Part shown: one piece after another, positions 3,917 through 32,638 of the stretch
Numbering within the stretch: position 1 is the first letter of the stretch
Layout: every line of letters starts with the position of its first letter
NCBI RefSeq assembly: GCF_009931435.1
Contig: NZ_CP043414.1
Reading direction: 5' to 3' (one strand)
DNA: 64,000 bases
From: Escherichia coli
GTDB lineage: Bacteria; Pseudomonadota; Gammaproteobacteria; Enterobacterales; Enterobacteriaceae
Translations under genes and position numbers: made by a program
The notes under the pieces: model-generated
What the model was told of the DNA's origin: nothing
Databases searched by the model: none
Seen by the model: only the letters and a program-made list of their open reading frames with translations

Positions 3917-4027
3917 GAAAAACTCCTTATGGGACGAATATCGTCATTCCCTTTGATTACAATAGCCCTGCCTGATGACCTTTCACAACCTTCTGCGTGA
4001 ATCCAGCACGCAAAATTGAGAAAAAAT

Positions 4028-4876
4028 TTATTGCCGAACCAGTCTTGTGGTCGATGGGACAAAATCGCTATTACTGCGCCACGGGTTAATGTCCAGACCG
4101 CCACGACGGGTATAACGTGCGTAAACGCTCAATTTCTCTGGCTGGCAGAAGCGTAACAGGTCATTAAAGATGCGTTCCACGCACTGTTCGTGGAACTCGT
4201 TGTGATGACGGAATGAGACCAGGTAACGCAGCAGTTTTTCTCTGTCAATTTGGCGTCCACGATACTGAATTTGGATCGAACCCCAATCTGGTTGATGGGT
4301 GATCAGGCAGTTTGATTTCAGCAGGTGGCTGACGAGCGTCTCTTCTACTACTTTTTCACCACTGGTGGCATTCTCAAGATAGTCAGTAGTGAATTCATAG
4401 TTATCGATAGTGATATCCTGGTCATCAATGCAGGTGCCATTGAAATGACCTATCGGCTGGCCTTCCAGTTCATCAAGACGATATAACGCCACGCTAACCT
4501 TACCCTGAGCGCAAGTGCTTAAGTCGCGCTCCAGCGTCTGGCGCACCTCATCCCAGTTATTAAAACGCGTCTGGTTAAAACTGTTGAGATAAAGCTTAAA
4601 ACTCTTCGACTCAATCAGATTTACGCTGGTGTAATCAAGTTCAACATGACCGACAGCGACCTGCGGCAAACCTTTCGCATTCAGCCAGGAAAGTTCATAC
4701 AGCGTCCAGATATCCGTACCGTGAAAAGGCAGGTTATCCGCTTTCAGACCCAGCGGGTCGCGATTCAGGCTGCGTGGAACGCCTTGCAGTAGGCTAGCGT
4801 CATAGGTATCCCGGTAATCGGTTGATTTTCCAAGAGTCAGGCCCGCAAGTGCCTGATGGTTTGCATAAGAAGACAT
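4028..4876 (-). CDS. queF: NADPH-dependent 7-cyano-7-deazaguanine reductase
   Basis: 282-aa [26 protein letters not shown]..., ATG at 4876-4874; two-domain QueF type. Confidence 0.93.
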
Positions 4877-6440: not shown

Positions 6441-7222
6441 TGCTGGAAATAATCTACCAGGATGAATGGCTGGTTGCGGTAAATAAACCCTCCGGCTGGC
6501 TGGTTCACCGCAGCTGGCTGGATCGCGACGAGAAAGTAGTGGTCATGCAAACCGTGCGTGACCAGATTGGTCAGCATGTATTTACCGCGCATCGGCTGGA
6601 TCGACCGACGTCCGGCGTATTGCTGATGGGACTATCCAGCGAGGCCGGACGGCTGTTGGCACAACAGTTTGAACAGCACCAAATCCAGAAACGTTACCAT
6701 GCGATTGTGCGCGGCTGGCTGATGGAAGAGGCTGTGCTGGATTATCCGCTGGTGGAAGAACTGGACAAAATCGCTGATAAATTCGTCCGCGAAGATAAAG
6801 GTCCACAGCCAGCGGTGACACATTATCGCGGTCTGGCGACCGTAGAAATGCCTGTAGCGACCGGACGTTACCCGACTACGCGCTACGGTCTGGTGGAACT
6901 GGAGCCGAAAACAGGACGCAAGCATCAGCTCCGTCGCCATCTTGCCCACTTGCGCCATCCGATTATTGGCGACAGCAAACATGGTGATTTACGTCAAAAT
7001 CGTAGCGGTGCTGAACATTTTGGCCTTCAGCGGTTAATGCTGCATGCCAGTCAGTTGTCATTGACACATCCTTTTACTGGCGAGCCGTTGACTATTCACG
7101 CGGGCCTGGACGGCACCTGGATGCAGGCGTTATCACAATTTGGCTGGCGGGGTCTGCTTCCTGAAAATGAAAGGGTTGAGTTCAGTGCGCCATCGGGTCA
7201 GGATGGAGAGATAAGTTCCTAA
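6440..7222 (+). CDS. truC: tRNA pseudouridine(65) synthase
   Basis: 260-aa [27 protein letters not shown]... with RluA-family pseudouridine synthase motifs (HRLDRPTSG); start overlaps yqcC stop (TGATG). Confidence 0.92.
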
Positions 7223-7239
7223 TCCAGGGAGAAAACGGT

Positions 7240-7689
7240 ATGGCGGAAATTGGTATTTTTGTGGGCACAATGTACGGAAATTCGCTGTTAGTGGCGGAAG
7301 AAGCGGAAGCAATTCTGACCGCGCAGGGCCACAAAGCAACGGTATTTGAAGATCCTGAATTAAGCGACTGGCTGCCCTATCAGGATAAGTATGTTCTGGT
7401 GGTTACGTCCACGACCGGGCAGGGCGACCTTCCTGATAGCATTGTGCCGCTCTTTCAGGGAATTAAAGATACCCTGGGCTTCCAGCCGAATCTGCGTTAT
7501 GGCGTGATTGCGCTCGGCGACAGTAGTTATGTGAATTTCTGCAATGGCGGCAAACAGTTCGATGCCTTGTTGCAGGAACAGAGTGCGCAGCGGATAGGGG
7601 AAATGCTGCTGATTGACGCCAGTGATAACCCGGAACCGGAAACGGAATCAAATCCGTGGGTCGAACAGTGGGGCACGCTGTTGTCCTGA
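7240..7689 (+). CDS. yqcA: flavodoxin-like FMN protein YqcA
   Basis: 149-aa [26 protein letters not shown]... (flavodoxin fold signature). Confidence 0.88.
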
Positions 7690-8108
7690 AAAATTGCCGT
7701 TTTAAGCAAACTGAATCGAATCTTTTCAGGCAAATGCCAGTAAAAACTGCTTCATAGCGCGGATTTTTACTGGCGTTTGCCTGGAGTCAAGCGATCCATT
7801 TCATACTCTTCTTTATTTCTTCGTTTTAATCCTTCCTTTCTTGTTCTTGTTTTCATTTCCGTGAAGTGGATTCCACCGTCCAGGGCTAATGCCAAAATCG
7901 GGCCTCATTGAACGCATTAATGTTGTGTTGTTGCACGGTGAGCCGCTATGGCGCGCTTTTTATACTGCTATTGCCAGATATAAACACGCGCCGTATTCGG
8001 CGAACGACCTATAAAAACGGCAAAAAACACCCTACGTCACCTCTGATTTCCTGGCGATGTCGCAGTCCAGAGTGAGCGTGGCTAACGCGAATTTTCAGGA
8101 GTGCAACA

Positions 8109-9461
8109 ATGAGTTCTTTAAGTCAGGCTGCGAGCAGTGTGGAAAAACGCACGAATGCTCGTTACTGGATAGTGGTGATGTTGTTTATCGTCACATCCTT
8201 CAACTACGGCGACCGCGCTACGCTCTCTATCGCCGGTTCGGAAATGGCCAAAGATATCGGCCTTGATCCTGTGGGAATGGGCTATGTGTTCTCTGCTTTC
8301 TCATGGGCTTATGTTATCGGGCAGATCCCTGGTGGCTGGTTGCTGGACCGTTTTGGTTCAAAACGCGTCTACTTCTGGTCGATCTTTATCTGGTCGATGT
8401 TTACCTTGCTGCAAGGCTTCGTCGATATCTTTAGTGGATTCGGCATTATCGTTGCCCTGTTTACGCTGCGCTTCCTGGTCGGGCTTGCTGAAGCGCCATC
8501 TTTCCCCGGTAACAGTCGCATTGTAGCGGCCTGGTTTCCGGCGCAGGAAAGGGGAACTGCAGTGTCTATTTTTAACTCCGCCCAATACTTCGCAACGGTG
8601 ATCTTCGCGCCGATTATGGGCTGGCTGACTCATGAAGTGGGTTGGTCACATGTCTTCTTCTTCATGGGCGGTCTGGGCATTGTCATCAGCTTTATCTGGT
8701 TGAAAGTCATCCATGAGCCAAATCAACATCCGGGCGTAAATCAGAAAGAGCTGGAGTACATCGCCGCGGGTGGTGCGCTGATCAATATGGATCAGCAAAA
8801 TACCAAAGTTAAAGTGTCGTTCAGCGTGAAGTGGGGGCAGATCAAACAGCTGCTCGGGTCACGGATGATGATCGGCGTTTATATCGGTCAGTACTGTATC
8901 AACGCCCTGACTTACTTCTTCATTACCTGGTTTCCGGTTTATCTGGTGCAGGCACGCGGGATGTCGATTCTGAAAGCGGGCTTTGTGGCTTCCGTACCGG
9001 CGGTTTGCGGTTTTATCGGCGGCGTGTTGGGGGGGATTATTTCAGACTGGCTGATGCGCCGCACAGGTTCGCTGAACATTGCGCGTAAAACACCGATCGT
9101 GATGGGCATGTTGCTATCAATGGTGATGGTGTTCTGTAACTACGTCAACGTTGAGTGGATGATCATCGGCTTTATGGCGCTGGCCTTCTTCGGTAAGGGC
9201 ATTGGGGCGCTGGGTTGGGCAGTAATGGCAGATACCGCGCCAAAAGAGATCAGCGGTCTTTCCGGTGGCCTGTTCAATATGTTTGGTAACATTTCCGGTA
9301 TCGTCACGCCAATCGCAATTGGTTATATCGTTGGCACGACTGGCTCCTTTAATGGGGCGCTGATTTATGTTGGTGTTCATGCCCTAATCGCGGTACTGAG
9401 CTACCTGGTGCTGGTGGGCGATATCAAGCGTATCGAGCTGAAACCTGTCGCGGGGCAATAA
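8109..9461 (+). CDS. gudP: glucarate/galactarate MFS transporter
   Basis: 450-aa [27 protein letters not shown]..., 12-TM MFS profile; CAGGAG RBS at 8096-8101. Confidence 0.92.
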
Positions 9462-19524: not shown

Positions 19525-20316
19525 ATGAATCAAATCGACCGTTTGCTCACTATTATGCAGCGTCTTCGCGACCCGGAAAACGGCTGCCCGTGGGATAAAG
19601 AGCAGACATTTGCCACCATTGCACCTTACACCCTTGAAGAAACCTACGAAGTGCTGGACGCCATCGCCCGCGAAGACTTTGACGATCTGCGCGGTGAACT
19701 CGGCGATCTGTTGTTCCAGGTGGTGTTTTACGCGCAAATGGCTCAGGAAGAAGGGCGCTTTGACTTTAATGATATTTGCGCTGCGATTAGCGATAAATTA
19801 GAGCGTCGCCATCCGCATGTTTTTGCTGACAGTTCTGCCGAAAACAGTAATGAAGTGCTCGCCCGTTGGGAGCAAATCAAAACCGAAGAGCGCGCGCAGA
19901 AAGCGCAGCATTCGGCGCTGGACGATATTCCTCGTAGTTTGCCGGCTTTAATGCGTGCGCAAAAAATCCAGAAACGTTGCGCCAACGTTGGCTTTGACTG
20001 GACGACGCTCGGCCCGGTAGTCGATAAGGTCTACGAAGAGATCGACGAGGTGATGTACGAGGCGCGGCAGGCTGTTGTCGACCAGGCTAAACTGGAGGAG
20101 GAAATGGGTGACCTGCTGTTTGCCACGGTCAATCTGGCTCGTCATTTAGGGACAAAAGCGGAAATCGCATTGCAAAAAGCCAATGAAAAATTCGAGCGCC
20201 GTTTTCGCGAAGTGGAGCGTATTGTTGCCGCGCGTGGACTGGAAATGACAGGTGTTGACCTCGAAACAATGGAAGAAGTCTGGCAACAGGTAAAACGGCA
20301 GGAAATTGATCTCTAA
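19525..20316 (+). CDS. mazG: nucleoside triphosphate pyrophosphohydrolase MazG
   Basis: 263-aa ORF MNQIDRLLTIMQRLRDPENGCPWDKEQTF... Confidence 0.93.
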   Translation: MNQIDRLLTIMQRLRDPENGCPWDKEQTFATIAPYTLEETYEVLDAIAREDFDDLRGELGDLLFQVVFYAQMAQEEGRFDFNDICAAISDKLERRHPHVFADSSAENSNEVLARWEQIKTEERAQKAQHSALDDIPRSLPALMRAQKIQKRCANVGFDWTTLGPVVDKVYEEIDEVMYEARQAVVDQAKLEEEMGDLLFATVNLARHLGTKAEIALQKANEKFERRFREVERIVAARGLEMTGVDLETMEEVWQQVKRQEIDL

Positions 20317-20528
20317 GGGAATTACGCGGTCAAGCGCGATTTGTGTCATTTTTTAAATGACAAGCGCTTGATTTGCGTCAAAAACATTTACCCCAAAGGG
20401 GCTATTTTCTCACTCCTGATTTCAATAGTGCGCTGGCGAAGAGGAGGGATAATGAAAGTTTGTGGCACAGGTCATGTTCGGGTATACTGCTTTCCCGTCC
20501 TGGTTATTCCATCGTCTTTTCAACCTAA

Positions 20529-22181
<1,653 letters not shown>

Positions 22182-22198
22182 GTAAAAAAGTTAGAACG

Positions 22199-22232
22199 GC
22201 AACGCGTACCCAGGGTACGCGTTGTTTGTCTG
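22199..22232 (+). terminator. hairpin plus T-rich tract between pyrG and eno
   Basis: CAACGCGTACCCAGGGTACGCGTTG (11-bp stem) followed by TTTGTCT. Confidence 0.5.
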
Positions 22233-22253
22233 GAGTTTCAGTTTAACTAGTGA

Positions 22254-23567
<1,314 letters not shown>

Positions 23568-23589
23568 GCCTGACTTTATCTGATTTAAA

Positions 23590-23619
23590 AATGCCAGCCT
23601 TCGGGCTGGCATTTTTTAT
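23590..23619. terminator. bidirectional intrinsic terminator between convergent eno and the TPM gene
   Basis: AAAAATGCCAGCCTTCGGGCTGGCATTTTTTAT: GC-rich stem with a U-run on the plus strand and an A-run giving a U-run on the minus strand. Confidence 0.8.
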
Positions 23620-23626
23620 GGTTGAG

Positions 23627-24520
23627 TTACCAGCGGCCAGACGCGCCGCCACCGCCAGAAGAACCGCCACCTCCGCTAAATCCGCCGCCACTTGAGCCGC
23701 CACCGGAAGAGGATGAAGAAGAACCTTTTCTTGAAGCTCTTTCTTTACCGAGCGTCTTGTATTTGGCTCGTAGCTTTTTATTAACGATAAGCCAAAAGAT
23801 AAGCAGCGCTACGATCGCAAAAGGCGTTAACATACCGCAGGCAACGATTAAATTCGTCCATGGTCCTGGCTCGGCAACATAGAGGAATACCATCCCGTAA
23901 ATTGCGGCAGTGAGAGTTATCCAGGGTAAATTCGACGGATCGGTAAAAACAATAAAATATGAAAGCACTGCCAGCAATATAATTACAGCAAGCGAAAATG
24001 GGATAGGGGGATTGATACTGTAATAATTCCCCCTGCCTTCCGGTAATTCACCATTCATCAGAAGTGCGCCGATATTTTCGCTTGCCAGTGTTAACCCCCC
24101 CATCAGGTCATCACTTTTGAAAGCAGGGATTAATATATCACGGATAATCTTTGCCGCTTGCAGGTCGGTAACCACCCCTTCCAGCCCATAGCCGACTTCT
24201 ATACGAACAGCATGATCTTCCCAGGCAACCAGAAGTAAAATGCCATCGTTTCGCTGCTTATCTCCCAGTTTCCAGCTATCAAAAACGCGTGTTGCATATT
24301 GTTCAATGGTATCGTCTCCGGTGGATGGCACTATTAATACGGCAACCTGTGCCCGTGTTTTTTGTGTAATATCCTGCAGCTGTTGTGTCAGTGATTGTTG
24401 TTCAGACGTGCTTAAGGTACCAGTAATATCGGTCACCTGTTGGCGCAGCTCCGGCACAGCAATTTGCTGGGCAAGCACAGGAAGGCACCATAAAGTGAGT
24501 AGAAAAAGGATTATACGCAT
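23627..24520 (-). CDS. TPM-domain membrane protein (YgcG-like), paralogue 1
   Basis: ORF 23627..24532 starts with TTG; the ATG at 24520 gives MRIILFLLTLWCLPVLAQQ... (signal peptide), TPM-type N-terminal domain, hydrophobic segments and a C-terminal Gly/Ser tail ending GGGGASGRW. Confidence 0.8.
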   Translation of the reverse strand: MRIILFLLTLWCLPVLAQQIAVPELRQQVTDITGTLSTSEQQSLTQQLQDITQKTRAQVAVLIVPSTGDDTIEQYATRVFDSWKLGDKQRNDGILLLVAWEDHAVRIEVGYGLEGVVTDLQAAKIIRDILIPAFKSDDLMGGLTLASENIGALLMNGELPEGRGNYYSINPPIPFSLAVIILLAVLSYFIVFTDPSNLPWITLTAAIYGMVFLYVAEPGPWTNLIVACGMLTPFAIVALLIFWLIVNKKLRAKYKTLGKERASRKGSSSSSSGGGSSGGGFSGGGGSSGGGGASGRW

Positions 24521-24525
24521 AACGA

Positions 24526-25674
24526 TCACCAACGGTCGGATGAACCGCCACCGCCAGAAGAACCGCCGCCACCGCGGAAAGAGTTTTTCGACGAAGAACG
24601 AGAATGAGCATTACGATTCCCCGTTTTCTTGTTGCTTTTATGCCCTGATCCCAGTTTAAGATTGCCAGTAGATTTGGCCACAATGATCAGCAGAACGATG
24701 CCAGCAATGGTTATTGGGCCGATAAAATGATCAATTAGCCCAATAATTGTTGAGATGAACGCAATATCTTTATTACTGGCAAATACCAGGCACCATCCCA
24801 CAACAATTATCAGCAGCACGACAAACAATGAATTTCGTCCTGATTCACGAACCTGCGGAGCCTTCTTTTGTTTTTTCACTTTAGCGTTTTTATTTTGGGG
24901 GGCCAGCATCATAGGAAATGCGCGGCATATATTAAAAACTACCGCGAGACGCTGCCAGCAGATTGCTGCGAAAAATAAACTAAAACAAACGACCGATATC
25001 CGTCGAATGATGACATCGTTCTGAAAGCAGAAAAACCAGACCATAGGGGTAATCATCGATATCATCCATATGCCAGGCCCTGGATGGGTGGTAAATCGCC
25101 AGAGGACAACGATGGCAACGATCATCAGCAGTGTCCAGGCAAGACATGGCAGAGAGCGTTGCGGATTAGCAAACAGATGATTGGCTAAAGCATCCAAAGG
25201 GCTAAGATTCGCTTTTATATAGGTAAACTGTGCGATGCCTTCAATTCCCTGCGTTAACCCGGAGAAGAGATTATTTTTTTTGAATTCCGGTTGCATATGG
25301 TAATGAACAATTTGCGCAGCTTGTTCCGGTGGCAGCATCTCTTCCAGTCCATGCCCAATCTTCATTGACGCCAGCCCTTCCGGCCAAACGACGAGAATTA
25401 AGATACCTTCGCCGTACCGCTTCTCTCCAACAGGTTTCCAGTGATATAACCCGTAGCTTTGCGAGGCTGCAAGTTTAATGTCTTTACCCCCAGTGGTCGG
25501 CGTTACCAACACGGCCACCTGAAAGTGGTTTTGCTGCTCGAGAGTCTGTAATTGTTGAGTTAAAGCAGTTTGTTCTTCTGTCGTTAATGTCCCGGTTAAG
25601 TCAGTTACTGAAGGCAATTGTTCAGCGAATGCCTGGAAACCACATAGCATCAGAAGTAAGAGAAAAATACGCAT
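24526..25674 (-). CDS. TPM-domain membrane protein, paralogue 2 (longer, polytopic)
   Basis: 382-aa ORF MRIFLLLLMLCGFQAFAEQLPSVTDLTGTLTTEEQ...; ATG at 25674-25672 with AAGGAA RBS; C-terminus GGGGSSGGGGSSDRW. Confidence 0.8.
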   Translation of the reverse strand: MRIFLLLLMLCGFQAFAEQLPSVTDLTGTLTTEEQTALTQQLQTLEQQNHFQVAVLVTPTTGGKDIKLAASQSYGLYHWKPVGEKRYGEGILILVVWPEGLASMKIGHGLEEMLPPEQAAQIVHYHMQPEFKKNNLFSGLTQGIEGIAQFTYIKANLSPLDALANHLFANPQRSLPCLAWTLLMIVAIVVLWRFTTHPGPGIWMISMITPMVWFFCFQNDVIIRRISVVCFSLFFAAICWQRLAVVFNICRAFPMMLAPQNKNAKVKKQKKAPQVRESGRNSLFVVLLIIVVGWCLVFASNKDIAFISTIIGLIDHFIGPITIAGIVLLIIVAKSTGNLKLGSGHKSNKKTGNRNAHSRSSSKNSFRGGGGSSGGGGSSDRW

Positions 25675-25688
25675 TTCAATTCCTTTTG

Positions 25689-26621
25689 TTACCAGCGCCC
25701 GGAGGCGCCACCGCCGCCAGATGAACCGCCGCCGCCGCTGAAATTATCATTGTCAAAAGAGGATGAAGAGGAAGATGACGACGATGATGAAGAACGCCAG
25801 GAGGCCGAGTTACTTCTTTCGTAGCGTGACGGTCGGTTGGCACTGCGCATCGAATCCCGAACCTTTTTGCCGAAGGGGGTAAAAGCGATAGCGACAGCCA
25901 GGAACGGTGTGGCGAAGCAGAGTAATGTTGCGAGTACTCCCCAGCTTCCGCCGAAACCTGCTATAGGTAAAACAAAGGCCAGTACAATAGCTGTGAAGCA
26001 AATTAGTCCCAGCGTTTTGAAATATCCTCTGGCGGAAATAAAGGTCAGTACTATTGCCCAGACTAACAAAGCCCACCAACCGCTAAAGGGCAAAGGGTGA
26101 TCGGTCGGTGTTATCGTTGCTAAATTATTCCCCGTCAGACGATTATCAATATCGCTTATTCCCTTTTGCAAGCCGCCAGCAAGGTCGCCATTTTTAAATG
26201 CCGGAATAATACTGTTGCGAATAATTTTCCCGGACTGCGCATCCGTAATAACGCCTTCCAGTCCGTAACCGATTTCAATACGCACGGTATGATCCTGCCA
26301 GGCGACTAACAGTAGAACGCCATCATCGCGGTCTTTATCACCCGGTTTCCAGCTATCGAATACCCGCGTAGCGTACTGCTCGATGGTTTCATCGCCCGTT
26401 GTTTCAACCACTAACACGACCAGTTGTGCGTGGCTTTTTTGCGTCAGCTCTTTAATCTGATTGGTCAAAGTATTTACTTCATCGTTCGTCAATTTACCGG
26501 TTAAGTCATTCACATACCTGGGTGATTCAGGCACTGGAATTTGTATGGCAAACACAGATGAACAAAAGAAAGCCATAAGGAAGATAAAATTTCGCACAGG
26601 ACTTCCTCGCTTAATGAGCAT
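25689..26621 (-). CDS. TPM-domain membrane protein, paralogue 3
   Basis: 310-aa ORF; shares identical stretches with paralogue 1 (TIEQYATRVFDSWK); C-terminal poly-Ser then GGGGSSGGGGASGRW; start codon uncertain (ATG at 26621 overlaps lemA by 11 nt; an internal Met before the signal peptide is possible). Confidence 0.75.
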   Translation of the reverse strand: MLIKRGSPVRNFIFLMAFFCSSVFAIQIPVPESPRYVNDLTGKLTNDEVNTLTNQIKELTQKSHAQLVVLVVETTGDETIEQYATRVFDSWKPGDKDRDDGVLLLVAWQDHTVRIEIGYGLEGVITDAQSGKIIRNSIIPAFKNGDLAGGLQKGISDIDNRLTGNNLATITPTDHPLPFSGWWALLVWAIVLTFISARGYFKTLGLICFTAIVLAFVLPIAGFGGSWGVLATLLCFATPFLAVAIAFTPFGKKVRDSMRSANRPSRYERSNSASWRSSSSSSSSSSSSFDNDNFSGGGGSSGGGGASGRW

Positions 26622-27213
26622 TAGTATTCTGGCTAAAATCTATTGTCGGGGCTTTACTCACAGCGGCGACATCATCCGGCAAATAATTTTTCTTTGGTGT
26701 GTAATCCATGACTTTTGCGGTTAACACTGCGGGGAATTTGCGGATAGTGACATTATATTGTTCGATGGCTTTAATATATCTTCCTCGCGCAACGGCAATT
26801 CGATTTTCACTTCCTTCGAGCTGTACCATCAAATTTTGATAGAGTTCCTGGGCCTTTAGCTCAGGGTAACGTTCACTAATTATCGTTAACTGACCGAGAG
26901 TGCGAGACACCTGCGCCTGAGCTTGTTGCCAGGTTTGTAATTTTTGTTCATCTCCCGGAGTTTGCTGAAGAGCGTTACTGGCGCGATTAGCCTGACTACG
27001 TGCCAATGTTACGGCTTCCAGTACCTCTTGTTCATGGCTGGAATAACCTTTAATACTGGCGACAAGATTAGGAATAAGATCGGCGCGACGTTGATATTGA
27101 TTTAATACCTCAGACCAGGAAGCGTTAACCTGCTCATCATAGGTTTGAATATCGTTATATCCACAGCCTGATAAATTGAAAATAAATATAATTACGATGA
27201 ATGTTCTGAGCAT
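26611..27213 (-). CDS. lemA: LemA-family lipoprotein
   Basis: 200-aa ORF MLRTFIVIIFIFNLSGCGYNDIQ... with lipobox LSGC and LemA-like coiled region; first gene of a four-gene minus-strand operon. Confidence 0.8.
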   Translation of the reverse strand: MLRTFIVIIFIFNLSGCGYNDIQTYDEQVNASWSEVLNQYQRRADLIPNLVASIKGYSSHEQEVLEAVTLARSQANRASNALQQTPGDEQKLQTWQQAQAQVSRTLGQLTIISERYPELKAQELYQNLMVQLEGSENRIAVARGRYIKAIEQYNVTIRKFPAVLTAKVMDYTPKKNYLPDDVAAVSKAPTIDFSQNTNAH

Positions 27214-27385
27214 GGTTAAATCCCTTTTAATTAATTCCTTAAAACATAATACGCCACTTCATTTTATTCTTTATGATCTAATCCACTTTTTGCCTTAAAC
27301 CTGCCTGTAACAGAATGTTAATAAGGCATGATTGTTGTGGCAGGATCTGCAATAATTAACAATTATCCACTTCACAGAGAATGCT

Positions 27386-28057
27386 ATGCAGTACCCGATT
27401 AACGAGATGTTCCAGACCCTGCAAGGTGAGGGTTACTTTACCGGCGTCCCCGCCATTTTTATTCGTTTACAGGGATGCCCGGTCGGCTGTGCCTGGTGCG
27501 ACACCAAACACACCTGGGAAAAGCTTGAGGATCGGGAAGTCTCCCTTTTCAGCATTCTGGCGAAGACCAAAGAGAGTGATAAGTGGGGGGCGGCGAGCAG
27601 TGAAGATTTGCTGGCTGTCATTGGTCGTCAGGGATACACCGCGCGGCATGTGGTGATTACGGGTGGTGAGCCTTGCATTCATGATTTGCTGCCACTGACT
27701 GACCTGCTCGAAAAGAACGGTTTTAGCTGCCAGATCGAAACCAGCGGTACTCATGAAGTACGCTGCACGCCGAATACCTGGGTTACCGTATCGCCAAAGC
27801 TGAACATGCGCGGCGGCTATGAAGTGTTGTCACAGGCACTGGAGCGAGCCAACGAAATCAAGCATCCAGTGGGACGCGTACGTGATATTGAAGCACTGGA
27901 TGAACTACTGGCAACGCTGACCGATGATAAACCACGAGTCATTGCACTGCAGCCGATTAGCCAAAAGGATGATGCCACACGTTTGTGCATTGAAACCTGC
28001 ATTGCGCGCAACTGGCGTTTGTCGATGCAAACACATAAATATTTAAATATTGCCTGA
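27386..28057 (+). CDS. queE: 7-carboxy-7-deazaguanine synthase (radical SAM)
   Basis: 223-aa ORF MQYPINEMFQTLQGEGYFTGVPAIFIRLQGCPVGCAWCDTKHTW... with CxxxCxxC radical-SAM cluster motif. Confidence 0.93.
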   Translation: MQYPINEMFQTLQGEGYFTGVPAIFIRLQGCPVGCAWCDTKHTWEKLEDREVSLFSILAKTKESDKWGAASSEDLLAVIGRQGYTARHVVITGGEPCIHDLLPLTDLLEKNGFSCQIETSGTHEVRCTPNTWVTVSPKLNMRGGYEVLSQALERANEIKHPVGRVRDIEALDELLATLTDDKPRVIALQPISQKDDATRLCIETCIARNWRLSMQTHKYLNIA

Positions 28058-28226
28058 TTAAACATTTATAAGCGTTATAAATGGGTGGAACCTGTAAAGA
28101 CTTCTGCTCATTTATATTCTTTGTCGCCTCTGAAAAACCTCCATTTTGCCCGTCCTGGACTAATCATTATCATTCTCTACAAATTCTCTGGCGTTAATTT
28201 TTCGCTGGAGTGAAAATTATTGCAGT

Positions 28227-28395
28227 GAAGTTTGGTAGATTTTAGTGGGTATAGAGTTATCTTAAACATTTACCTTTTTAATCAATGGATTAAGTGTTCT
28301 TTAACATAATGGATGTGTTGTTTGTGTGATCCTGTAAAGTTGGTAGATTGTGACTGGCTTAAAAAATCATTAATTAATAATAGGTTATGTTTAGA
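28227..28395 (+). promoter_or_regulatory. CRISPR leader of the queE-proximal array
   Basis: AT-rich; AGTTGGTAGATTGT motif at 28339-28352, 43 bp before repeat 1, and a related TTTGGTAGATTTT at 28231-28243. Confidence 0.7.
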
Positions 28396-29218
28396 GAGTT
28401 CCCCGCGCCAGCGGGGATAAACCGGCGGTAAAATTGTTGCTACCGTCTGGCCCTTGCGAGTTCCCCGCGCCAGCGGGGATAAACCGACGGTGCAGGATCT
28501 GTAATTCTTGCTCGCGATGAGTTCCCCGCGCCAGCGGGGATAAACCGAGTTATCAGGATTATTCCCGCTCCGCCGCCAGGAGTTCCCCGCGCCAGCGGGG
28601 ATAAACCGTCGTTTTTGTGGTGGGAGTGTGCGGATTGGTAGAGTTCCCCGCGCCAGCGGGGATAAACCGGCTGACATTGTCAGCTATAACCTTACAATGT
28701 GGAGTTCCCCGCGCCAGCGGGGATAAACCGACGTCCCGCTATTTCCTGGACAGTGTGTAGCGGAGTTCCCCGCGCCAGCGGGGATAAACCGGCGGCGCTA
28801 ACGTGATAATCACGATCAATTATGAGTTCCCCGCGCCAGCGGGGATAAACCGCGGGCGTTAACCTTTTTATAGGCATCTTCCTTGAGTTCCCCGCGCCAG
28901 CGGGGATAAACCGGCTTGCAGCAGCTGCGCCAACATCTGAATACGGAGTTCCCCGCGCCAGCGGGGATAAACCGCTTTTTCCCGTGACAAGATCCAGTTA
29001 ACTGTTGAGTTCCCCGCGCCAGCGGGGATAAACCGCATCACTGGACGCCCATTTGAATAACTCACAGGAGTTCCCCGCGCCAGCGGGGATAAACCGATTC
29101 AGCAAATAGCGAATTTCATAAATATGATGTGTTCCCCGCGCCAGCGGGGATAAACCGTACGTTAAACGCCATCTGTCATGGGTCGTCATGTGTTCCCCGC
29201 GCCAGCGGGGATAAACCA
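28396..29218 (+). CRISPR. type I-E CRISPR array: 14 repeats, 13 spacers (32-33 bp)
   Basis: 29-bp repeat GAGTTCCCCGCGCCAGCGGGGATAAACCG at 28396, 28458, 28519, 28580, 28641, 28702, 28763, 28824, 28885, 28946, 29007, 29068; last two repeats (29129, 29190) are GTGTT variants and the final one ends ...AAACCA. Confidence 0.97.
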
Positions 29219-29671
29219 CCATATAACCCGTTATCTCTTTCTCAAGTTTTTATATTAGCTGTACTTGTAATAAGCAACATATCCACATAACACCTCATGT
29301 TCAAAATAGTTCCCCATGCCAGATAAGTTCACAATTATCGATACAAAAAATCAAATTTAATCAAAGTGTTATATGTATAATCCTTAAACCGTTAAGAAAT
29401 TTTAATATATTATTTTTTTAATATTAATTAATGCCTGTTAATTTTTTCTTTAGAATAACAGTGTATTTTTTAAGCTTGTTATTCATTGATTAAGTAATAA
29501 ATCTGGAAGTTTGTCTTTGTTTTGAGGCTAATGAGTGGTTTTACATAACCGCCTCTATACGCTGTTGATGAATAGTTCTTATGAATAAAGATATCCAGTT
29601 CATACTTTAAGTGAAAATTGATAAAGTGCGATTCGTATTGTCTTTTATTCTAAAGACATCGAGTGTAGTTA

Positions 29672-29809
29672 ATATTCCTTGTAAAAACAGGGATAAACCG
29701 AACTAGTTAAAGTTTTTATTATGTTCCCTGCATCAGCGGGGATAAACCGGACTTGTTATCATTTTTTAAGTTGTCGAACTTATGTTCCCCGCGCCAGCGG
29801 GGATAACCA
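29672..29809 (+). CRISPR. degenerate mini-array remnant (about 3 decayed repeats, one clear 32-bp spacer)
   Basis: TTCCTTGTAAAAACAGGGATAAACCG (ends 29700), ATGTTCCCTGCATCAGCGGGGATAAACCG (29721-29749), 32-bp spacer 29750-29781, ATGTTCCCCGCGCCAGCGGGGATAACC (29782-29808). Confidence 0.75.
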
Positions 29810-29855
29810 TTCAGGTATGTTCAGGCCGGGCAGTTTCCCGCCCGGCCTTCCTCAC

Positions 29856-31334
29856 TTACGCATTCGACCAGCTCTGGATCGAATCTGCATTCCCCAACTC
29901 ACCATGCATCACTTCATACGATTTTTTCAGGATCACATCAGTGTGTTTGGTTAGGTCTTTGAAAATGCCTTTATTCATCGCGTCGTAGCGTTTGGCATTG
30001 CTCTCAATCGGCATAAAGATATCTTTCACGCGAACCATTTTGTCGACAGCCGTTGCGTAATCCGGGTATAGCCCCAGACCTATCGCTGTATTAATCGCGG
30101 CCCCCAGACTTGCGCAACCGTTAATGGCGTTACGGCGTGCCGGAAGGTTGAACACGTCGGCAAAAATCTGCATAAACAGATCGCTGTTCGAACCACCGCC
30201 AGTAATGATCACATGTTTCGCAAAGTGATTCATTTCATGACACATATTGTCGTAATTGTTCTTCAGCGTCAGCGCCACGCTTTCCAGTATCGAACGATAA
30301 ATCCATGCGTAATCCATGCTGGAATCAAAGCCGATCATAATTCCGCGTTTGTACGGTTCCCACGGATTGGTCAGCCAGTCCAGCACCGTCATCAGACCAT
30401 TACAGCCAGGCGGCACACAACAAGCTTTTTTGTTGAGCAAATCTTCCGGTGAAAGATCCTGCGCCCTGGCATCCTGAATTAACGATTCGCCTAGCATGTC
30501 GCGCAGCCAACTCACCGTCCACATACCTTTTCGAATACCATAACCTTCATACAGCAAGGTTTCCGGAATAGAAGACATGATCGGCCAGTACGCAACCGGA
30601 TCTTTCGGCAGTGCTTTGCCGTTCATCATCAACGCGATGTAGGTACCAAGAGAAATTACCGCCGTTTCATCATCCAGTAACCCTGCTCCCAGTGCTTCTA
30701 CCGGTTTATCACTGGTGGTACAAACAACGGGCAGTCCAACCGGGAAATGTGTCGCCAGCGCGGCTTGTGGTGTGATATGCCCAAGTACAGTGCCCGGCAT
30801 TTGCACATCAAAAAGCATCTGTCGGGGAATATTAAACTTCTCCATTACCGCGGTATCTTCGCTCCATGCCCAGGTCTTATAATCCACCGGCCACTGACCA
30901 AAATAGTTGGCGATATTGTCTTTAAACTCGCCGGTTAAACGGTGTGTCAGATAACCTGAAAAAGAGGTGACATATGCCACATCAGGATTGATGTGCTCGT
31001 AGGGACGTGTTACGCGTGCATCCTGCCAGCTAATCAACGGCGCAGCTGGCGTGCCATCGGCTTTCAATAACGCACGGCAGCAACGGATAGATCCCAGACC
31101 AATGCCGACAATATCTTCTTTATTCCCGGCAAACTGGCTCATCAAATCGTGACCAGCAAAACATAATGATGCCCATAAATCATCGTCAGGATGTTCTGCG
31201 GTATCGGCATCTGGAGTGTGCATCGGTTGTAATAAGCCTTTGCCTTCGCAAACCACGTTACCTTCCAGATCGTACATCACCACTTTTGTGCTCTGACTTC
31301 CGCCATCAATCCCTATGATGTATTTTTTCGACAT
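29856..31334 (-). CDS. ygcE: FGGY-family sugar (pentulose/hexulose-type) kinase
   Basis: 492-aa ORF MSKKYIIGIDGGSQSTKVVMYDLEGNVV... (FGGY N-terminal signature). Confidence 0.88.
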   Translation of the reverse strand: MSKKYIIGIDGGSQSTKVVMYDLEGNVVCEGKGLLQPMHTPDADTAEHPDDDLWASLCFAGHDLMSQFAGNKEDIVGIGLGSIRCCRALLKADGTPAAPLISWQDARVTRPYEHINPDVAYVTSFSGYLTHRLTGEFKDNIANYFGQWPVDYKTWAWSEDTAVMEKFNIPRQMLFDVQMPGTVLGHITPQAALATHFPVGLPVVCTTSDKPVEALGAGLLDDETAVISLGTYIALMMNGKALPKDPVAYWPIMSSIPETLLYEGYGIRKGMWTVSWLRDMLGESLIQDARAQDLSPEDLLNKKACCVPPGCNGLMTVLDWLTNPWEPYKRGIMIGFDSSMDYAWIYRSILESVALTLKNNYDNMCHEMNHFAKHVIITGGGSNSDLFMQIFADVFNLPARRNAINGCASLGAAINTAIGLGLYPDYATAVDKMVRVKDIFMPIESNAKRYDAMNKGIFKDLTKHTDVILKKSYEVMHGELGNADSIQSWSNA

Positions 31335-31360
31335 GATTTTTCTCCTGTAATTTTCCTGGC

Positions 31361-32638
31361 TTACTTGCTGCTAGCCATTGCGGGGGCGCTATCAGCAGTA
31401 CGAATTTTTTGGAACAGCAAAAAGGTAAAGACGATCACCATGGCAAGCGCCGCCATGCCCATCAGCCACATATTGCGGTAGGCTTCTGCTGCGGGCAGGG
31501 TGTCTTGCCAGTGGCCGATAATTGGGTAAACGAAGACATCCGGCAGAAATCCAATCACCGAACAAATACCTACCGTGGTGCCCATAATGTAAGACGGTGT
31601 TCTCGCTTCGCCAGGGCAGGCCCAGTACAGCCCGCGTGAGGCGTAACAGGTGAATCCCAGAAGTAAAATCAGACCAATCCCCATCGCGACCGATTGCGGG
31701 TTAGAGTTCGTGATGAGCAGGGCAGTTAACGCCAGCAGGCCGAGTACGGAAAGGATTTGGATCACGCGGGTAGGGGATTTCACTTTGCTGTAGGTGGTGA
31801 TAATGCCACCAAGTGGGCCGCACAGTGCGCGGAAGATTTTGTTGATCACAATCCCCATGTAGCTCGCCGCCACCAGCGACATGCCGTACATTTCGGTCAG
31901 ATAGTTGGTGGAGTAACTCAGAATGGCGTAGATGGTGAAGACGCCAAAAATCACCATGCTGCAGTACCATGTGGTGCTGATACGCAAAACGGCAAGGATG
32001 TCGCTAAGCTGGAATGACTGTTTTTCTTCGGTGTTGGTATTGCACAGGTTGTTGTTATCGCTAACAAAAAACCAGCACAGAATCCCCAACAAGATGTAAA
32101 CCACACTATAGATGATAATGACCGTTTTCAGGCTGGCGCTGTCATCCGGTGCAAAGCGAGAAAAGACCCACATGGTAAACACCGCCAGCGACATTACACC
32201 GACGCCGCGCAGCCCTTCCATCCAGCCCATAATTTTCCCTTGCTCGCTATGATCGCCAAGCAACGATGCGGCTTTAATCGACACCGACCACAGCATTAAA
32301 ATCGTCGTTATCGCAAAGGCGACCTGAATACAGAGCATTACCCACAGCGGTGGATACGTTGCCATTAACAGACCCAGCAATCCGGTAATGATCATCGCGG
32401 AAGTAATCATTTTGCGATGCGAAAATTTATCGGCAATAACGCCGCTGGGGGCATAAAGAATAATAGCCGCAATACCAAAGGTACTCATTATTAAACCTAT
32501 CTCGGTATTGCTGAATCCCATAAATTTCGCCATGGGAATTTGATAAATATAACGTAAATAAGCCAGATCAAAACTAACGCCGCCACTAAAACTAATTATC
32601 GCTAGGGTTATCCAACGGCGATATGAGTTGTGTTGCAT
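31361..32638 (-). CDS. yqcE: MFS transporter
   Basis: 425-aa ORF MQHNSYRRWITLAIISFSGGVSFDLAYLRYIYQ..., polytopic. Confidence 0.85.
   Translation of the reverse strand: MQHNSYRRWITLAIISFSGGVSFDLAYLRYIYQIPMAKFMGFSNTEIGLIMSTFGIAAIILYAPSGVIADKFSHRKMITSAMIITGLLGLLMATYPPLWVMLCIQVAFAITTILMLWSVSIKAASLLGDHSEQGKIMGWMEGLRGVGVMSLAVFTMWVFSRFAPDDSASLKTVIIIYSVVYILLGILCWFFVSDNNNLCNTNTEEKQSFQLSDILAVLRISTTWYCSMVIFGVFTIYAILSYSTNYLTEMYGMSLVAASYMGIVINKIFRALCGPLGGIITTYSKVKSPTRVIQILSVLGLLALTALLITNSNPQSVAMGIGLILLLGFTCYASRGLYWACPGEARTPSYIMGTTVGICSVIGFLPDVFVYPIIGHWQDTLPAAEAYRNMWLMGMAALAMVIVFTFLLFQKIRTADSAPAMASSK

Follow-up and report, generated by a model that had tools for sequence, protein, structure and literature searches.

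A 64,000-nucleotide (nt) stretch of Escherichia coli DNA (contig NZ_CP043414.1; hereafter the window) carries, between eno and queE, a four-gene operon, lemA-tpm1-tpm2-tpm3, that encodes a LemA lipoprotein and three long membrane proteins with TPM domains (TPM1, TPM2 and TPM3), all four open reading frames (ORFs) being intact. Comparison with other strains and genera identifies this operon as the fuller, older state of the queE-eno locus and the K-12 pair yqcG-ygcG as a deletion derivative of it. We propose that its products form a complex at the periplasmic side of the inner membrane, with an accessory role under stress. Our confidence in this reading, taken whole, is evenly divided, and its mechanistic part alone deserves less.

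The four genes lie on the minus strand: lemA at 26611-27213 (200 amino acids, aa), tpm1 at 25689-26621 (310 aa from its ATG), tpm2 at 24526-25674 (382 aa) and tpm3 at 23627-24520 (297 aa from its ATG). A six-frame ORF list returned exactly the coordinates and sizes given in the original prediction, which a model had made from the letters alone. Their junctions overlap or nearly abut, as that prediction had said of an operon: lemA and tpm1 overlap by 11 nt if tpm1 starts at ATG 26621, the gap between tpm1 and tpm2 is 14 nt, and 5 nt separate the tpm2 stop from the tpm3 ATG. Judged by its context, GTG 26597 is more likely than ATG 26621 to be the translation start of tpm1, because a GAGGA Shine-Dalgarno sequence lies upstream of it and the annotated EDL933 start agrees; the product would then have 302 aa. 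No further LemA or TPM genes were found elsewhere in the 64-kb window.

Pfam backed all four family assignments. The lemA product matches PF04011 over model positions 1-149 of 149 (E = 2.6e-48), its hydrophobic N-terminus ends in a lipobox (L-S-G-C17) that predicts lipidation and hence a membrane anchor, and the mature part has the four-helix-bundle fold of the solved LemA structure 2ETD. Conservation of LemA is very strong, with 42 invariant columns among sequences that are ~50% identical to the window protein. All three TPM proteins match PF04536 (TPM_phosphatase) over model positions 1-124 of 125, with E values of 3.4e-40 for TPM1, 2.2e-22 for TPM2 and 1.3e-38 for TPM3, and all three show the predicted signal peptides, hydrophobic segments and Ser/Gly tails, which end in GRW in TPM1 and TPM3 and in DRW in TPM2. 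This is the YgcG-type layout of signal peptide, TPM domain, transmembrane segments and Gly-rich end G-x-W. The YgcG-type assignment is one of architecture, as an NCBIfam scan returned no YgcG model.

Within this common layout, the three proteins differ. TPM1 and TPM3 each have a canonical TPM domain followed by 3 hydrophobic segments, with a Ser-rich region and Gly tail in TPM1 and a Gly/Ser tail in TPM3, and in a column-by-column comparison both keep almost all of the family-conserved polar residues, including Asp, Glu and Arg. The peptide TIEQYATRVFDSWK is identical in these two, as originally noted, and had been taken as a mark of recent duplication. We find no support for that event, since TPM1 and TPM3 are 46% identical in protein sequence (~70% in DNA over the domain core) and the peptide is a family-wide motif, present also in K-12 YgcG and the Klebsiella homologue and fitting the proteobacterial consensus.

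TPM2 is the divergent member. Its TPM domain is degenerate, with ~14 family-conserved residues substituted (for example Y83A, R86Q, R114S, E116K, D127P and D146N in TPM1 numbering) and the conserved acidic residues largely lost, and it is followed by 5 predicted transmembrane helices with a Lys-rich loop and the tail. An AlphaFold2 (AF2) model of TPM2 shows the TPM fold at a predicted local distance difference test (pLDDT) score of 80-89. The five helices that follow (residues 171-335) have pLDDT 55-70, and both the Lys-rich loop at 253-279 and the tail are disordered. Foldseek matched this model at probability 1.00 to 5ANP, 2KW7, 7TBR, 3PTJ and 8C7I; the proteins matched were BA41, PG0361, Rhom172_1776, TLP18.3, BA42, Psb32 and LMTP1. 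An accessory chain of ~143 residues from the CIII2CIV2 supercomplex of actinobacteria was matched as well. The TPM fold is thus assigned to TPM2 by model, to TPM1 by sequence match to the same chains (PDB 7TBR, 5ANP and 2KW7 among solved structures) and to TPM3 by its Pfam match. Full-length proteins of the TPM2 type came up in E. coli and E. albertii alone, the latter with many alleles at 78-91% identity. A relative in Klebsiella spallanzanii (L085 6001-6858) has its TPM domain replaced by ~45 residues and keeps the signal peptide, membrane part and Gly tail; the membrane-plus-tail part of the TPM2 type persists there on its own.

In MG1655 the order at the site is queE, yqcG (46 aa), ygcG (290 aa) and eno. 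The original prediction had given K-12 a single ygcG and regarded the four-gene operon as an expansion; ygcG does stand at the site and the two loci do differ, but the small yqcG had been missed and it is K-12 that is reduced. On the eno side, the homology between K-12 and window (97% identity) extends across the terminator and takes in the final ~80 nt of ygcG/tpm3; on the queE side (90% identity) it covers the intergenic region and the first ~12 lemA codons. Between these flanking blocks the two are at most 71% identical or unalignable. YqcG starts with MSEENKENGFNHVKTFTKIIFIFSVLVF and LemA with MLRTFIVIIFIFNLSGC, and the K-12 DNA lacks 1 nt directly behind the lemA ATG, with an upstream ATG opened in frame. 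On these alignments the homology of the yqcG 5' end to lemA is solid, and because it takes in the lemA leader and first codons, the hydrophobic core of YqcG is what remains of the LemA signal peptide, a fossil. For the 3' half of yqcG, local alignment with the lemA 3' end of an E. albertii allele scored 28, a score reached by none of 200 shuffles; against the window lemA the match was not significant, and MAFFT placed the region differently. Derivation of the yqcG 3' end from that of lemA through an in-frame internal deletion is suggestive only.

Outgroups give the direction of change. The queE-eno site holds lemA and genes for proteins of 293, 378 and 306 aa in E. albertii, lemA and genes for 290- and 312-aa proteins in Entomohabitans teleogrylli, and, in K. 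spallanzanii, lemA with genes for a TPM protein of 294 aa and a TPM2-like protein of 285 aa. All three thus carry an intact lemA together with two to three genes for tail-bearing membrane proteins, at least one of them with a TPM domain. It is because the outgroups carry intact arrays, and because yqcG keeps the lemA leader and signal-peptide codons, that we read K-12 as the reduced state. With 37-43% identity to TPM1 and TPM3, K-12 YgcG represents a fourth paralogue type. A simple origin of ygcG as a recombinant of tpm1 and tpm3 was rejected, only the last ~80 nt matching tpm3 and the remainder being at most 71% identical.

Haplotype counts over 5,426 complete E. coli genomes showed that the locus is polymorphic. 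At least 80% of the four-gene segment is present in 1,102 genomes (about a fifth of strains), lemA in 1,451-1,454 and a K-12-type ygcG in 3,929-4,289; insertion sequence IS1 interrupts ygcG in some strains. A third haplotype, found in 340 genomes in copies >99% identical to one another, consists of lemA, tpm1 and an ORF for an unrelated 120-aa membrane protein. This hypothetical protein (L002 2224-2586) stands in for TPM2 and TPM3, with no TPM similarity and no PADLOC match. The synteny of the eno-queE interval therefore bore out the expectation that the arrangement varies among E. coli and differs in K-12.

Two of the window genes have variant alleles elsewhere. At tpm1 codon 233 (25923-25925), the window reads TTA, and EDL933 and 299 other genomes from the four-gene group read TGA, which truncates the protein at 224 aa while the frame beyond stays open to GRW (L084 3541-4448); all listed examples are O157:H7 or relatives, and a sense codon is kept in 813 genomes. 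Two full-length tpm1 genes (L001 5292-6224 and L002 2622-3557) that the Prokaryotic Genome Annotation Pipeline (PGAP) flags as 'incomplete, missing C-terminus' proved to be annotation artefacts, with intact ORFs of 310 and 311 aa; PGAP appears to have modelled both on the truncated 224-aa O157 protein. The nearest genome, strain 2020CK-00188, is identical to the window at the locus except in a tpm3 homopolymer (24088-24094), which on the coding strand has seven G in the window (G7) and nine (G9) in that strain, where tpm3 is annotated as frameshifted. The difference could be a sequencing error or mark a slippage-prone site. The G7 tract is absent from the other tpm3 alleles examined.

Divergence at the locus exceeds that of its flanks. 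Alleles within E. coli are 5-9% divergent (up to 20% in the tpm1 that belongs to the third haplotype), against 1-2% in eno and queE. Synonymous divergence (dS) between window and EDL933 is 0.17-0.29 at the locus, 0.06 in eno and 0.10 in queE. For the same pair, the ratio of nonsynonymous to synonymous divergence (dN/dS) is 0.12 for lemA, 0.15 for tpm1, 0.28 for tpm2 and 0.15 for tpm3. These values, from 0.12 to 0.28, therefore place the four genes under purifying selection.

We also found traces of exchange between the paralogues. Strain SCPM-O-B-8794 has an array of lemA, tpm1, tpm3 and, as its last gene, a tpm3/ygcG chimera whose 3' 700 nt are 94.8% identical to K-12 ygcG; as read from the alignment, this chimera is direct evidence of recombination between paralogues at the locus. 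In this array, the chimera and the TPM gene directly before it (L005 8462-10251) are nearly identical over their first ~40 codons. In the window, the gene 3' ends hold three imperfect direct copies of a minus-strand tail-coding repeat (23609-23680, 24508-24579 and 25671-25742), which are 67-76% identical in a repeat search and 79-84% identical over 48-55 nt in a self-blast. The eno-side boundary between the K-12 and four-gene haplotypes falls within this repeat and therefore fits recombination between paralogue ends.

A stronger claim built on these traces would make queE-eno a cassette-exchange locus, at which tail-bearing TPM proteins are swapped, fused and deleted through recombination involving their nearly identical tail-coding 3' ends and their signal-peptide 5' ends. 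Deeply diverged allele classes, which E. albertii has too, would be maintained there by diversifying or balancing selection, with the periplasmic or membrane parts as points of contact for phages, bacteriocins or host factors. We consider this claim quite unlikely to hold in full. If it were true, the K-12 'stress protein' YqcG would be the expressed fossil of a lipoprotein signal peptide, and the natural haplotypes would form a ready allelic series for finding the function of the LemA-TPM module.

The operon has relatives well beyond Escherichia. Scanning for LemA with one genome per species gave 80 loci, which we analysed by ORFs and hidden Markov models. The canonical beta- and gammaproteobacterial module that emerged comprises a LemA lipoprotein, a long TPM protein and a short TPM protein, and we take its lemA/long-TPM/short-TPM operon to be the COG1704, COG1512 and COG3762 neighbourhood. 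The lipobox LSGC followed by GYN occurs in 79 of 82 LemA proteins, with the first helix following without a preceding linker, and a long TPM gene comes directly after lemA in nearly all of the 80 loci. The long TPM proteins combine a signal peptide and a TPM domain with, usually, 3 hydrophobic segments; their tail follows the pattern GGGGxSGGGGASGxW, and W is the last residue in 72 of 79. The short one, usually encoded by the third gene and ~170 aa long, has no hydrophobic segment in any of 31 cases and is presumably cytoplasmic.

The window follows the canonical order in that its lipobox-bearing lemA directly precedes a co-directional long TPM gene, and its TPM proteins likewise have an odd helix number and a Gly tail ending in G-x-W. 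It departs from that order in having three long paralogues, one of them with a degenerate domain and five helices, in place of one long and one short TPM protein. A short (~170 aa) TPM ORF was found neither in the 64-kb window nor in the Escherichia, Entomohabitans or Klebsiella loci, and on account of this absence we regard the window operon as a variant of the canonical module. The K-12 genes yqcG-ygcG (b4682 and b2778) occupy the same queE-eno site and encode, in YgcG, the architecture of TPM1 and TPM3; unlike the window they lack LemA and hold just its leader and signal-peptide codons inside yqcG.

More distant relatives were compared as guides to function. TLP18.3 and LMTP1 resemble TPM2 in having the TPM fold (target-normalised TM-score, TMt, 0.57-0.74; 0.28 for Psb32, a much longer chain), and all three are membrane-tethered and extracytoplasmic, but sequence identity is only 11-17%, a LemA partner or Gly tail is unreported for them, and E. 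coli has no photosystem. The CIII2CIV2 accessory chain (6adq_J, 6hwh_O, 8ovc_V and 8hcr_J), which we take to be PRSAF1/AscA, likewise resembles TPM2 in fold (TMt 0.62-0.68) and sits on a large membrane complex; it differs in sequence (16-18% identity), and no equivalent partner in E. coli is known. BA41 and BA42 (Bizionia) and Rhom172_1776, the closest solved structures to the window TPM proteins by sequence and fold, were studied as isolated domains, for which metal binding and a weak hydrolase activity are reported. BA41, BA42 and TLP18.3 reportedly have ATPase/ADPase or acid-phosphatase activity. The window LemA is set apart from MamQ and Thermotoga LemA (2ETD) by its anchor, a lipobox; the family's original description is said to have predicted an N-terminal transmembrane helix. 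Two narrower assignments were rejected on score, the Psb32 equivalog (NCBIfam NF047379; 33.4 and 34.8 bits, cutoff 160) and the MamQ equivalog (NF040966; 91.4 bits, cutoff 250).

These comparisons shape the function that we propose. LemA and the three TPM domains would face the periplasm. Each TPM protein would cross the inner membrane an odd number of times and leave its Ser/Gly tail, with the terminal W, in the cytoplasm, a placement suggested by hydropathy, by the 3, 5 and 3 helices that follow the TPM domain in TPM1, TPM2 and TPM3 and by clusters of Lys/Arg behind the final helix. The four proteins may associate at the periplasmic side as one membrane complex, with TPM1 and TPM3 as canonical subunits and TPM2 as a diverged, probably non-catalytic partner, and this complex would dock onto, or maintain, another membrane complex of the envelope in stationary phase or under envelope stress. 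We favour an accessory factor because those TPM proteins whose role is known are tethered to the membrane and act as accessory or assembly factors at the extracytoplasmic side of large membrane complexes. Psb32, for one, was found bound to a late photosystem II (PSII) assembly intermediate solved by cryo-electron microscopy; TLP18.3 and the CIII2CIV2 chain are further examples.

A link to stress comes from published work on related genes. In K-12, the promoter region common to queE and ygcG binds sigma-S holoenzyme and phosphorylated PhoP (PhoP-P). The PhoP-P binding lies 300-600 base pairs upstream of queE, and deletion of yqcG raises queE expression (PMC4974570). YqcG is listed in RefSeq as a cell envelope stress response protein. 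Expression of lemA and of one TPM gene goes up in an sppA mutant of Flavobacterium, and a YgcG-family protein was mutated recurrently at one position when Cupriavidus was evolved experimentally, in one case towards salt tolerance. In lemA-carrying strains, the stretch 300-600 base pairs upstream of queE is lemA coding sequence, and for this reason the haplotype may alter queE regulation and PhoQ-dependent filamentation (the sites compared are window 27214-27385 and L086 1920-2057).

Several points weigh against an accessory complex of this kind. No client complex is known in E. coli, and the stress-regulation data stem from K-12, which lacks lemA, and not from the four-gene allele. About 72-79% of E. 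coli genomes lack lemA along with two or three paralogues; since most E. coli manage without them, the function is dispensable. The membrane part of TPM2 is modelled at a confidence of only 55-70. LemA could end up in either the inner or the outer membrane, as its +2 residue is Gly and helix 1 follows without a linker. Finally, with BA41 as the closest structural match and phosphatase or ATPase activity reported for some TPM domains, a catalytic role keeps some probability.

That catalytic role can be put as a periplasmic metal-dependent phosphatase or nucleotidase, in which the TPM1 and TPM3 domains hydrolyse a phosphorylated periplasmic or lipid substrate and LemA and TPM2 regulate or scaffold them. 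The Pfam family is named TPM_phosphatase, the best structure and sequence matches are BA41 (5ANP), BA42 and TLP18.3 with the activities said to belong to them, and TPM1 and TPM3 retain the family-conserved Asp, Glu and Arg. Mg, Ca or Mn is bound in several TPM structures, according to a 2025 preprint on the TPM family, but the same survey sees neither an agreed function for the family nor a clear relation of function to structure, and the metal sites differ between members. The better-characterized TPM members are assembly or accessory factors, TPM2 is without most of the conserved polar residues, and one relative is without the whole domain; on balance we judge the enzymatic role unlikely.

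Two further explanations draw on the population data. A variable conflict locus, serving phage defence, superinfection exclusion or bacteriocin interaction and with its paralogues shuffled by diversifying selection, would account for at least four haplotypes in E. coli, for alleles that differ by 5-20% where flanking genes differ by 1-2%, for dS 2-4 times that of the flanks, for chimeric paralogues (L005, SCPM-O-B-8794), for the many TPM2 alleles of E. albertii at 78-91% identity and for the CRISPR (clustered regularly interspaced short palindromic repeats) arrays that adjoin the locus in both E. coli and K. spallanzanii. PADLOC-DB held no family match for the four proteins or for the 120-aa protein of the third haplotype, however, and no integrase, insertion sequence or tRNA gene was found at the window's copy of the locus. 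The chromosomal position is fixed over three genera, dN/dS stays well under 1, conservation of LemA is very strong and many beta- and gammaproteobacteria have the core module, so that we hold a conflict locus to be very unlikely. The original prediction of a variable accessory locus by a CRISPR array thus stands as regards polymorphism, and its connection to CRISPR finds no support. Equally improbable, in our estimate, is a decaying remnant without function that E. coli is losing piecemeal. The absence of lemA and two to three paralogues from most strains, the TGA codon in 300 genomes of the O157:H7 lineage, the tpm3 frameshift in the nearest genome and the IS1 insertions in ygcG would all fit decay, but the four window ORFs are intact, 813 genomes keep the tpm1 sense codon, dN/dS is 0.12-0.28 and the arrangement is kept in E. 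albertii.

Non-coding elements frame the operon. Its neighbours are eno (22269-23567) and queE (27386-28057), both on the plus strand. The 172-nt divergent region that it has in common with queE (27214-27385), ~90% identical to the K-12 queE-yqcG region, is the presumed promoter and leader of the lemA operon on the minus strand. Towards eno, a perfect hairpin with A and T runs at its flanks (23587-23616), seen on reading the sequence and as an inverted self-match, is probably a bidirectional terminator common to eno and the TPM operon. A consensus scan for promoters and terminators gave no excess over shuffled sequence and also missed this hairpin, and an Rfam scan of 20000-32000 at gathering thresholds returned no matches. 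A Pro-rich plus-strand ORF at 23622-23882 (86 aa, PPPPEEPPPP...) was rejected as a gene, being the antisense of the tpm3 Gly-tail codons. The locus has a GC content of 46.4%, against 50.8% for the window.

CRISPR arrays of type I-E-like appearance lie beside the lemA-TPM locus in both genera, on opposite sides of it: between the TPM genes and eno in Klebsiella (L085 ~6860-8130) and between queE and ygcE in E. coli (window ~28380-29210). Compared with the nearest genome, the window has an entirely different set of spacers and a repeat that departs at two positions. Apart from the main array, one CRISPR-like repeat (TGTTCCCCGCGCCAGCGGGGATAA, ~29785-29810) stands alone near the ygcE 3' end.

The genes themselves are not new: the four-gene arrangement is already annotated in >1,000 RefSeq genomes, EDL933 among them, and the locus is best described as annotated, uncharacterized and polymorphic, not as a new kind of system. 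Literature searches pairing LemA with TPM and yqcG with LemA returned no functional study, and with the lack of consensus in the 2025 preprint they agree with the original prediction that no function is established. Our literature search also found no description of the multi-haplotype paralogue array, of K-12 as its reduced form or of yqcG as a lemA fossil.

In aggregate, these results bear on a gene pairing, LemA with TPM, that recurs across many proteobacteria. K-12 keeps only an orphan TPM gene and a lemA fossil, and screens in K-12 could therefore not have revealed the role of the module. With natural knockouts in the O157:H7 nonsense allele and the K-12 deletion, and with the full operon in about a fifth of strains, the question becomes testable in a tractable organism. 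The gene yqcG, studied until now as encoding a small envelope-stress protein, has to be reread as a lemA remnant lying over a regulatory region common with queE.

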